64,000 nt of DNA from Candidatus Dojkabacteria bacterium (GTDB lineage Bacteria > Patescibacteriota > Dojkabacteria > B142 > JAFGMG01), in the NCBI GenBank assembly GCA_016927655.1, contig JAFGMG010000010.1, forward strand, positions 16,180-80,179. The letters run 5' to 3'. Under the pieces are notes generated by a model. The model was given only the letters and a program-made list of their open reading frames with translations. It ran no database searches and was not told the origin of the DNA. Shown in pieces: positions 34,622 through 36,463 of this stretch. The position numbers and the translations under genes were made by a program. Numbering within the stretch: position 1 is the first letter of the stretch; each line of letters starts with the position of its first letter.

Positions 34622-35746
34622 ATGCGAAAAAAGGAAATAAAAACAAAAAATGGAATTATAAAAACTCCAGCGTTTATGCCGGATGCAACTTATGGTTCTA
34701 TAAGATCAATCAGCTTCAATGACGCAAAAACGGCAGATGTAAAAGAAATTGTCACAACAACACTGCATATTGAAAATAAAATTGGGAGTGAATATATTCG
34801 CGAATTTGGAGGAATTCATAAATTCTTCGGCTGGGACAGGCCGATACTTAGCGACAGCGGAGGCTTTCAAGTATTCTCGCTGATTCATAACGCAAGAGAT
34901 AAAAAGTTAAATAAAATCACAAGCGCCGGCTGCAGTTTTGTAAACCCGGATACCGGTCAGACTAAATTCCTAAGTCCGGAGATTTCGCAGATTATCCAGT
35001 TTAATCTTGGTGCGGATATTGTGACTGCATTGGATGAGCCAACCATCAGGGACGCGCCAAGATCCGTACTTAAAAATTCTCTAAAAAGAAATACTGACTG
35101 GGCTAGAAGATCAAAAGATAAATTTCTTGAATTGCACAATCTAACTAAGAAAGACTTCAACGATCCAAAAATTACAAGACCACTACTTGGCGCTGTCATT
35201 CAAGGCGGAAATGATTTTAATCTAAGAAAGCAAAGTGCTCAGGAGCTAATTGAGATCGGTTTTGATATGTACAATTTTGGGGGGATGCCCCTGCACAATT
35301 CAAAATCCTGGAAAAATAATGCGTCAAAAGGCTTTCACCATGAACTTCTTGCTAAGGTTGCTATGCTGATTCCGGAAGATAAGATCCGCTATGCCATGGG
35401 TGTCGGAACACCTGATGACATAGAGTTTTGCGTGAATAACGGCTGGGATATTTTTGATACAGTACTTCCAACCAGAAACGCACGCCACGGGTTTCTTTAT
35501 GTTACAAAAGGGCAGGGAGATAAAAACTTTAAGACGTATGACGTGCTGCATCTCAAATCTGACAGATATAAATTTGATGAAGGACCAATAGACAAGCACT
35601 GTGACTGCGAAGCCTGCAGAACTGTCAGCCGAGCCTACCTAAGGCATCTAATAAGAATCAATGAACCCGCAGGATATAGGCTTGCAACTATTCACAATTT
35701 GCACTACTACGCAAATTTAATTAGAAATAATATCCTTCTCAATTAA
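34622..35746 (+). CDS. tgt: queuine tRNA-ribosyltransferase
   Basis: [12 protein letters not shown] catalytic motif; zinc site CDCEAC...H. Confidence 0.9.
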
Positions 35747-36247
35747 ATCTCTTAAATAGTTTGAGATATTTGATTTTTTGGCTTCTGCCATTCGTTCTAA
35801 ATGTTCTCGTTGCTCATGTGAAATACGCAAATTAAGTCTTTGGGAGATGGATTGATTTTGTGCAAATTGTAGGAAATACGTAATTTTATTTGGAAGTTCA
35901 AGTAACGTTTTATATTTACATACGCGAAAATAGCGGCTATCAGATAGATTTTTATAATCTTCTATTTGAGATAGTATTAGTATTGGCTTTCGTTTTTCTA
36001 TACATTTTAAAGCATATGCTCCTAATTCAAAACTTGGGATTGTTGCTTCAACAATTACCGCATCCGAAATTTTTATTTCGTATTCTATGGATTGCTTTTT
36101 TATTGGATCAATAAAATCTGATTTAATATTTGTGCAAACGTCCAATTCTTTTACTCCAAAAAGGTATTTAATAATACTATTATATATTTTAGTAGTTTTT
36201 AATTCTGTGTCTTTGTTTTTACTGCCAGCAAGAAAGAGTATTTTCAT
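35717..36247 (-). CDS. nucleoside 2-deoxyribosyltransferase-like domain fused to C-terminal ribbon-helix-helix DNA-binding domain
   Basis: N-terminus MKILFLAGS...[32 protein letters not shown] matches NDT/SLOG-fold signatures. C-terminus [34 protein letters not shown] is CopG/Arc-type RHH. Confidence 0.55.
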
Positions 36248-36257
36248 ATTGAATTCT

Positions 36258-36385
36258 TACGTATACTAAACAACATACTTTATCTTATCACTATTTTACA
36301 CGTACATACTTACGTACATCACATTCCTTGTTATACACTCTCCTGTAGTCTATTTACTCTCTTATTCGTACATCCGTACGTACAT
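36258..36385. promoter_or_regulatory. operator-like array: four CGTACAT boxes (36301, 36313, 36367, 36379) plus TACGTA palindrome at 36258, between the RHH gene and divergent uvrB
   Basis: Read directly from sequence: two box pairs 12 bp apart, pairs 66 bp apart; palindromic core GTACGTAC at 36376-36383; candidate -10 TATGCTAAAAT for uvrB at ~36444. Confidence 0.45.
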
Positions 36386-36463
36386 TGATATAAGCGACCC
36401 ATAATAGATCACCTTACCTAACCCTGGAACCCACAAGAAATAATTATGCTAAAATGACCCGTA

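Follow-up and report, generated by a model that had tools for sequence, protein, structure and literature searches.

The sequence analysed here, which we call the window, is a stretch of 64,000 nucleotides from a Candidatus Dojkabacteria metagenome-assembled genome (GenBank assembly GCA_016927655.1, contig JAFGMG010000010.1, positions 16,180 to 80,179 of the forward strand). Unless another locus is named, coordinates refer to the window. Our subject is a gene whose product is identical to the NCBI hypothetical protein JW978_03205 and which diverges from uvrB across a spacer of 216 bp (36248-36463) common to both genes. The protein joins a DNPH1/Rcl-like domain to a C-terminal ribbon-helix-helix (RHH) domain, and it is probably an autoregulated one-component regulator that binds two operators in this spacer. 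The genes and domains of the locus, taken from a list of open reading frames (ORFs) and from the analyses described below, are as follows.

34622-35746, forward strand: tgt, tRNA guanosine(34) transglycosylase, convergent with the regulator gene (TIGR00430, 311.9 bits against a cutoff of 306.75)
35717-36247, reverse strand: regulator gene, 176 residues, N-terminus MKILFLAGS (ORF list; identical NCBI protein)
35720-35848, reverse strand: C-terminal RHH domain, residues 134-176, with R137 and N139 on its strand (profiles, AlphaFold2)
35858-36247, reverse strand: N-terminal domain, residues 1 to about 130, nucleoside 2-deoxyribosyltransferase (NDT) superfamily, DNPH1/Rcl-like Rossmannoid fold (profile, Foldseek)
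36464-38545, forward strand: uvrB, divergent neighbour (ORF list; same divergence in the syntenic locus L007, with UvrB Pfam domains)

A prior word-index search for homologs returned the window protein alone, and an exhaustive HMMER search then revealed a family of at least 86 representative clusters, with proteins of 160-230 residues, matches covering both domains and one architecture. We aligned 77 of the 86 representatives (alignment A1), from which all residue frequencies given here are taken. Narrower alignments of the LGHEAT clade were used to collect loci, and this sample is biased towards members that contain the nucleophile Glu. Wherever an organism name is given it is Dojkabacteria or Saccharibacteria, all belonging to the Candidate Phyla Radiation (CPR), and many of the loci come from groundwater and sediment metagenomes. 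In public databases the members are named "hypothetical protein" or "CopG family transcriptional regulator".

Searched against the PDB, the A1 profile matched rat and human DNPH1/Rcl over the whole N-domain (profile positions 3-139, E = 4e-12 to 8e-9), the motifs D-x-V-I-x-E, P-S, G-[HY]-E and K-P being aligned; nucleoside 2-deoxyribosyltransferases appeared weakly, the best with an E-value of about 0.06. The single-sequence PDB search with the window protein was uninformative. The AlphaFold2 model computed on A1 (pLDDT 93.8, pTM 0.82) shows an α/β domain with five strands, joined by a short linker to two helices at the end of the chain. Among its 77 Foldseek matches in the PDB with E ≤ 0.001, the best 50 are all DNPH1/Rcl, with DNPH1 at the top, a probability of 1.0, E-values down to 3.8e-6 and target TM scores of 0.6-0.75. 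PF05014 is matched directly by 23 of the 77 family members (best 2.3e-10). The window protein alone has no PF05014 match in Pfam, so its assignment to the NDT superfamily rests on the family; judged from this family's profile and model, the N-domain is a member of the NDT/DNPH1 superfamily. The original prediction, made from the sequence without database searches, had called the domain NDT/SLOG-like. The NDT-superfamily fold is upheld and can be narrowed to DNPH1/Rcl, while the proposed kinship with LOG/SLOG or TIR is not: no such structure occurs in the A1 profile list or among the best 50 of the 77 Foldseek matches. Any relation to SLOG and TIR remains at the level of the broad fold class. 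The conserved positions of the N-domain are D62, E67, S72, G76, K87-P88 and Y112. A full-text literature search found no description of a DNPH1/NDT fold in a transcription factor, or of its fusion to an RHH domain.

DNPH1 is a dimer whose substrate is an aberrant nucleotide; its D80 protonates the base, E104 makes the covalent sugar intermediate and Y24 is the third residue of the triad (PMC10603095). The equivalent positions of the family are the following.

D62, catalytic Asp: 66 of 77 members, kept in the window protein
E67, acidic residue of the VIIE motif: 76 of 77 members, kept in the window protein
G76, Gly before the nucleophile: 75 of 77 members, kept in the window protein
Position 78, nucleophile Glu (E104 of human DNPH1): 46 of 77 members, Tyr78 in the window protein

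Around the nucleophile, the window protein reads LGAYAL, against LG[HY]E in the family and GVGYELG in DNPH1. The other Glu-less members carry Leu, Ile, Tyr or Phe at this position, and the two nearest relatives of the window protein carry Tyr and Leu. The column equivalent to Tyr24 of DNPH1 is occupied by Leu4 in the window protein and by Phe in 46 of the 77 members, with a Tyr often found one residue further on. Since the nucleophile Glu is replaced by Tyr78, the N-domain of the window protein is expected to bind rather than to hydrolyse, and we do not call it a DNPH1 enzyme. The window clade is probably non-catalytic and would use the DNPH1 fold for binding and/or oligomerisation. Putatively catalytic and non-catalytic members coexist in the family, which makes it apt for evolutionary study.

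The C-terminal domain had been described as an RHH, a reading that is borne out by family matches, by a domain-only profile and by the modelled secondary structure. In the AlphaFold2 model, an extended segment (residues 134-143) is followed by helices 144-156 and 161-175; the model is a single chain, and the strand pairs only in a dimer. Taken alone, the window protein gives RHH matches that are all sub-threshold (TacA1, NikA-like, CopG_antitoxin and RelB), the TacA1 match reaching 18.6 bits for a cutoff of 21. Family members match RHH_1 (4.6e-4), NikA-like (1.4e-5) and DUF6290. The domain-only profile (A5, the last 46 residues or so) matched in the PDB a designed RHH (3e-4), AvtR (2e-3), CopG (8e-3) and an RHH protein of the anti-CRISPR type (8e-3), then TacA-type DUF1778, HP0222, NikA and NikR, the top of the list consisting solely of RHH proteins. 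R137 is found in 68, N139 in 67 and R166 in 76 of the 77 members. On this profile and model evidence the window protein belongs to the RHH superfamily. The conserved R137, N139 and R166, together with the motif covariation reported below, lend indirect support to dimerisation and to sequence-specific DNA binding through the β-ribbon. The C-terminal position of the RHH had been presented as the reverse of that in RHH antitoxins and NikR; it is unusual and it is not unique, HicB-type antitoxins also carrying a C-terminal RHH.

The spacer between the regulator gene and uvrB contains the following elements.

36258-36265, reverse strand: single family-consensus half-site TATACGTA, 10 nt upstream of the regulator ATG, possible third site
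36283-36319 and 36349-36385, unstranded: the two copies, 76% identical, of a 37-nt direct repeat carrying O1 and O2 (sequence comparison)
36293-36298, reverse strand: candidate -10 hexamer TAAAAT of the regulator gene, abutting O1 downstream (read by eye; weak)
36300-36319, unstranded: predicted operator O1, boxes at 36301 and 36313, quasi-palindrome GTACATAC·TTACGTAC at 36302-36317
36364-36385, unstranded: predicted operator O2, boxes at 36367 and 36379, family-matrix match at 36364
36447-36455, forward strand: extended -10-like element TGCTAAAAT of uvrB, 8 nt before the uvrB ATG, conserved in L007

Four forward-strand CGTACAT boxes, at 36301, 36313, 36367 and 36379, form two pairs with a 12-bp spacing inside each pair and a 66-bp spacing from one pair to the next, confirming the geometry first noticed in the spacer; the palindrome GTACGTAC (36376-36383) and a TACGTA near the gene start (36258-36263, 10 nt from the regulator ATG) are also present as described. 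The 64-kb window contains 7 copies of CGTACAT against 2.1 expected, and 4 of them fall within 85 bp (Poisson P of about 3e-10). TACGTA occurs at 10 positions, 3 of which are in the spacer. Outside the spacer the copies of CGTACAT are near their chance number: one is in uvrB (38198), one at 48524, and one is a lone ATGTACG box on the minus strand (3293-3299), 43 nt past tRNA-Thr (3175-3250).

O1 is made of the elements TACATA (36303) and TACGTA (36311), 8 bp apart, and O2 of TACATC (36369) and TACGTA (36377), also 8 bp apart; GTACGTAC lies within O2. As GTAC and TACGTA are self-complementary, the 12-bp direct repeats and the 8-bp quasi-palindrome describe identical bases, and the second form is the one that holds family-wide. 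Each "direct-repeat pair" is therefore better described as one 16-bp quasi-palindrome with elements 8 bp apart, homologous to the palindrome of the family. Both 37-nt modules face the regulator gene, and the repeat suggests a duplicated operator/promoter module. The half-site TATACGTA has the same position relative to the ATG as the main palindrome of most family members.

We scanned the 64,000 positions of the window with a matrix trained on other family loci, the window clade being left out. Position 36302 (GTACATACTTACGTAC) ranked second with a score of 12.0 and position 36364 fourth with 10.3. A score of at least 10 is reached at only four positions of the window, and a rough calculation gives P of about 7e-5 for two of them in the 216-bp spacer, which had been specified in advance. 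The top match (18020-18035, ATACATATATACATCA, score 13.3) lies inside the ORF 17881-18411 on the reverse strand and was dismissed as probably due to chance. O1 and O2 are 62 bp apart in gene orientation, or 66 bp by the register of the repeat, for a family distance of mostly 55-64 bp. A search for LexA-type boxes (CTG-N10-CAG, GAAC-N4-GTTC and GTTC-N7-GTTC) found none in the spacer, as had been predicted, and no S24 homolog was found in the 64-kb window. The identity of a LexA/SOS repressor was accordingly rejected for the protein, whose domains are DNPH1-like and RHH.

When the upstream regions of the family are lined up, a shared sequence, GATATACATATATATGTATG, is conspicuous. ATACATAT occurs 66 times in the 147-nt upstream regions of 59 dereplicated loci, where the remaining sequence of these loci would predict 0.5. 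The motif matrix, trained on 58 loci with the window, L006 and L007 excluded, converges on a 16-bp palindrome, ATAC[AG]TAT·ATA[TC]GTAT, whose TAC[AG]TA halves are 8 bp apart. About 50 members have this palindrome twice upstream, 55-64 bp apart. In most loci one copy is at the regulator start and the other at the start of the divergent gene; for loci with two well-scoring sites, the distances range from 47 to 69 bp (with an outlier of 151), with a mode of 59. The main site is 18-114 nt from the ATG in five loci (L025, L036, L037, L040 and L061), showing that the motif is not merely start-codon context. In the main clade, the spacers between the regulator gene and a VOC gene (L011-L080, for example L016, L018 and L023) have the look of back-to-back leaderless promoters, TTGC-N17-TATACA-N9-ATG, and an operator lies over each start codon.

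TAC[AG]TA is found upstream of members whose strand reads R-[FL]-N, and it is absent from L007 (R-F-H) and from L009, L010 and L012 (R-K-N, of a queuosine-salvage clade). This covariation fits recognition of DNA by the strand. A scan with the family matrix found no site upstream of the umuDC-like operon described below, nor in L007, L009 and L084. About 50 distant members, as well as a paralog in the same genome, have a related motif conserved upstream with this two-site geometry, in agreement with the original proposal that the boxes are the operator of the neighbouring gene product; it is very likely, from these comparisons, that the CGTACAT boxes are the predicted operator of the DNPH1-like/RHH protein.

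The paralog, P0002 (locus L006), is the nearest homolog of the window protein, with about 43% identity, and its locus tag, JW978_04460, places it in the same genome. Its upstream region contains ATGTACATATGTACAT and TGTGCATATATGTATAC, 65-69 bp apart and 70-155 nt from the ATG (L006 118-204), and its operators are the top three matrix matches in the 6.8-kb locus. The divergent neighbour (L006 1-33, minus strand, GACGCGGGGTGGAGCAG...) begins like an initiator tRNA-Met gene, not uvrB. That the paralog's operators face a tRNA-fMet-like gene argues that the operators go with the regulator gene and not with uvrB. Cross-talk between the window regulator and JW978_04460 is possible.

The window clade search returned three proteins, and the boxes beside uvrB were compared with one ortholog, P0003 (36% identity) in locus L007 of another Dojkabacteria genome, the one other genome in which the order uvrB, regulator, convergent tgt, MurT, GatD recurs. 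The CGTACAT boxes expected at orthologous uvrB upstream regions are absent from this sole syntenic ortholog: in its 504-bp spacer neither the sequence nor the matrix scan revealed a TAC[AG]TA-type motif. When the regions upstream of uvrB in the window and in L007 are aligned, an identical block of 15 nt, ATATGCTAAAATGACC, stands out; it ends 5 nt from the ATG, and the sequences upstream of it are dissimilar. The sequences suggest that the uvrB mRNA is leaderless or nearly so, with its core promoter at least 62 bp beyond the nearest box. No Shine-Dalgarno sequence is visible before uvrB (window 36447-36466; L007 about 2679-2700, minus strand).

An inverted repeat upstream of tRNA-Gly had been linked to the same operator core. 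The 9-nt repeat TGACGTACT/AGTACGTCA does exist at 2170 and 2291; it lacks the TAC[AG]TA core, and a count of perfect 9-nt inverted repeats with loops of at most 150 nt gave 67 distinct ones in the window, a chance level that deprives it of the meaning it was given.

To survey the genomic context of the family, flanking ORFs were clustered over 81 loci (80 fetched loci and the window segment). A VOC/glyoxalase gene (PF00903, about 145 residues) is immediately upstream and divergent in 44 of the 81 loci, with a spacer typically of 35-130 nt; this VOC partner has no match in the PDB or NCBIfam. The L086 contig carries two paralogs, at 2106-2660 and 5001-5579: the start codon of one, which diverges from a VOC gene, is covered by a near-perfect palindrome with a score of 21.5, and the other diverges from two NADAR-domain genes and lacks such a palindrome. 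Members of other clades adjoin EamA and AAA ATPase genes, or form an apparent operon with genes for a methyltransferase and the queuosine-salvage protein PF10343. In another Dojkabacteria genome (L001 5218-6522), the member follows a heliorhodopsin gene of the same strand after 9 nt and converges with thyA; OGG_N and NUDIX proteins are encoded 3-4 kb away. In a further Dojkabacteria lineage (L081 1254-5531, also L082 and L083), the member is the last of a same-strand string comprising an S24 peptidase (138 residues, UmuD-like), a Y-family polymerase (IMS with DUF4113), a 358-residue protein of unknown function and Methyltransf_21. Additional contexts include a RadA-like gene, a NUDIX with a radical-SAM gene, NADAR, an HD gene and several that are uninformative. 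By a post-hoc tally, about half of roughly 15 independent contexts concern DNA repair or nucleotide handling, which is suggestive. The S24-peptidase/Y-family polymerase pair, together with a reported comparative study of a LexA network in Patescibacteria (PMID 28618189), makes it doubtful that the lineage lacks a canonical SOS system, as had been assumed.

The explanation that we consider the most probable is that the protein is an autoregulated DNPH1-like/RHH one-component regulator binding two operators. It builds on what was computed here: the gene and its two folds, the family to which it belongs, a cis-architecture of two operators conserved in that family, and the agreement of the window boxes with this architecture. 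From this basis we infer that the protein actually binds DNA, in which direction it regulates, that an effector exists and of what kind, and whatever influence there may be on uvrB. The C-terminal RHH would dimerise and read TAC[AG]TA-type elements through the strand residues R137 and N139. The N-domain would add another interface for dimer or oligomer formation and would most likely offer a pocket to an effector resembling a nucleoside 5'-monophosphate. Two RHH dimers would bind each 16-bp quasi-palindromic operator (O1 36302-36317, O2 about 36364-36385), and the separation of O1 and O2 by about six helical turns would favour cooperative binding. O1, placed against the probable promoter of the regulator gene, would mediate autorepression, and binding of the effector would alter the affinity for DNA.

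Several observations weigh against this explanation. The window operators are degenerate, with scores of 10-12 compared with 20-24 at main-clade sites, they are located 54-138 nt from the ATG and not on it, and a TAC[AG]TA-type motif is missing from the L007 spacer. A consensus promoter scan found no regulator promoter and did not list TAAAAT; the placement of the promoter at this hexamer is a conjecture from sequence. In the main clade the AT-rich motif overlaps probable -10 and start regions, and a promoter signal could therefore account for part of its conservation. The covariation of strand and motif relies on few independent cases, and L014 has the R-F-N strand yet no motif. As for the putative binding of a ligand by the N-domain, the position of the triad Tyr in β1 is Phe or Leu in most members.

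The protein might alternatively be primarily a nucleotide N-glycosidase of the DNPH1/NDT type, whose RHH ties expression to its own level, making it bifunctional like PutA or BirA. Such a role would suit the retention in A1 of the nucleophile Glu, the catalytic Asp and the acidic residue of VIIE at the frequencies given above, the 23 direct PF05014 matches and the nucleotide-handling neighbours of several clades (Q_salvage, NUDIX, NADAR, HD and ThyA). However, DNPH1 catalysis needs the covalent Glu104 intermediate (PMC10603095), and the nucleophile position is occupied by Tyr in the window protein and by Tyr and Leu in its two nearest relatives. The predominance of Phe or Leu at the triad Tyr also counts against catalysis, and the repeated independent loss of the Glu in the family suits binding better, so that we find a primarily enzymatic role improbable. 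A toxin-antitoxin or anti-phage module, in which an NDT-like effector depletes nucleotides and is fused to an antitoxin-type RHH, is hardly credible. The best single-sequence RHH matches in Pfam and NCBIfam are indeed antitoxin families (TacA1, RelB and CopG_antitoxin), and defence systems are known to include NDT-related and SLOG-type folds; but there is no partner toxin gene, the neighbours being uvrB and tgt, the chromosomal position next to a VOC gene is stable across dozens of streamlined genomes, and the catalytic Glu is lost in the window protein. PADLOC gave no match for four family members, and the defence reading was rejected.

The other two alternatives concern the boxes. They might not be bound by the gene product at all and instead stem from duplication of a promoter fragment, from a low-complexity repeat that arose by chance or from an RNA element, given that they lie within a 37-nt duplication, are absent from the syntenic ortholog and consist of GTAC-rich repeats able to pair in RNA. 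We hold this to be very unlikely: the window sites are found by a matrix trained on unrelated loci, their spacing agrees with that of the family and the clustering of the boxes has a P of about 3e-10. An RNA element was rejected, as no Rfam family matches the spacer and the z-score of RNA folding is only -1.7. The original prediction in its full form held that the RHH regulator activates or represses uvrB upon sensing a DNA-damage-related nucleotide. The divergent uvrB arrangement occurs in two Dojkabacteria genomes, both divergent genes of the main clade have an operator at their start, and other clades adjoin the S24-peptidase/Y-family polymerase pair, a RadA-like gene, NUDIX or NADAR; DNPH1, moreover, acts on an aberrant nucleotide (PMC10603095). 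Yet control of uvrB is not borne out by the comparison of loci. The conserved element TGCTAAAAT of uvrB lies outside the array, 62 bp past the nearest box, and the sequence upstream of it is unconserved; the syntenic ortholog has no boxes; the similar operators of the same-genome paralog face a tRNA-fMet-like gene; both 37-nt modules are oriented to the regulator gene; and of the roughly 15 independent contexts, about half show no connection with DNA or nucleotides. We regard this reading as possible but doubtful, and uvrB as a possible, unproven second target. A broader proposal would make the family a CPR-specific sensor of aberrant or damage-derived (deoxy)nucleoside monophosphates, which would use the DNPH1-derived pocket in a LexA-independent damage response. 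Such a sensor would switch on uvrB here and, elsewhere, umuDC-like, RadA-like, NUDIX, NADAR, Q-salvage or VOC partners; we think this unlikely.

The preferred explanation, a DNPH1-like/RHH regulator with two operators, can be compared with known systems. With DNPH1/Rcl, the window protein shares the fold of the N-domain and its motifs (β1 loop Ser, Asp, (V/I)IE, PS, G-[HY]-E, KP and a late Tyr). It differs by the added C-terminal RHH and by the Tyr at the Glu104 equivalent, most of the family departing from DNPH1 also at the Tyr24 equivalent (Phe or Leu), and its role is apparently regulatory, not metabolic. NikR, which is matched by the A5 profile, is likewise an RHH regulator in one polypeptide, with a second domain for oligomerisation and effector binding, separated half-sites and autoregulation. 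In NikR, however, the RHH is N-terminal and the ACT-like nickel-binding domain represents another sensor fold and ligand class; its half-sites are about two turns apart in one operator, whereas the window has two operators about six turns apart. MetJ, CopG (a profile match) and Arc similarly read short elements with a β-strand and place two dimers on a 16-21-bp operator, and the 8-bp spacing of elements in the window operators resembles the tandem metboxes of MetJ. The corepressor of MetJ is nucleoside-derived. These proteins differ in being single-domain, without an enzyme-derived domain, MetJ binding S-adenosylmethionine on the RHH itself. B. subtilis PurR, with its phosphoribosyltransferase-like domain, and NrdR, with its ATP-cone, illustrate how a fold from nucleotide metabolism, in many cases without catalytic activity, can be reused by a repressor as its effector domain; they have other sensor folds, without homology, and their DNA-binding domains are a winged helix-turn-helix and a Zn-ribbon, respectively. 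RHH antitoxins, including the HicB type, also autoregulate their own promoter through an RHH, but the window gene has no cognate toxin gene and no PADLOC or toxin-antitoxin context, and its N-domain is DNPH1-like, not toxin-neutralising.

To our knowledge, almost nothing is known about the control of transcription in CPR bacteria. The family offers a testable unit, combining a compact CPR regulator, a clear operator consensus, a two-operator geometry of about 60 bp and, usually, a divergent VOC target. If the N-domain senses a nucleotide, the N-glycosidase fold of the pool sanitiser DNPH1 would have been repurposed as an allosteric module, and at the window locus the regulator would have a possible, unproven tie to nucleotide excision repair via uvrB.

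Downstream, the 3' ends of tgt and the regulator gene overlap by 30 nt (35717-35746), compared with 20 nt in the syntenic L007 (3766-3785). Queuosine-related neighbourhoods were seen twice independently in the family, as the convergent tgt and as the operon with PF10343 in a different clade. A pair of genes for MurT (Mur ligase middle domain/MurT_C) and a GatD-like protein (GATase_3) at 32530-34601 adjoins tgt and is syntenic in L007; it would supply isoglutamine amidation of lipid II in a CPR genome. On the other side, the stop region of uvrB overlaps by 8 nt (38538-38545) with a convergent ORF on the reverse strand (38538-39647) that encodes a 369-residue membrane protein.

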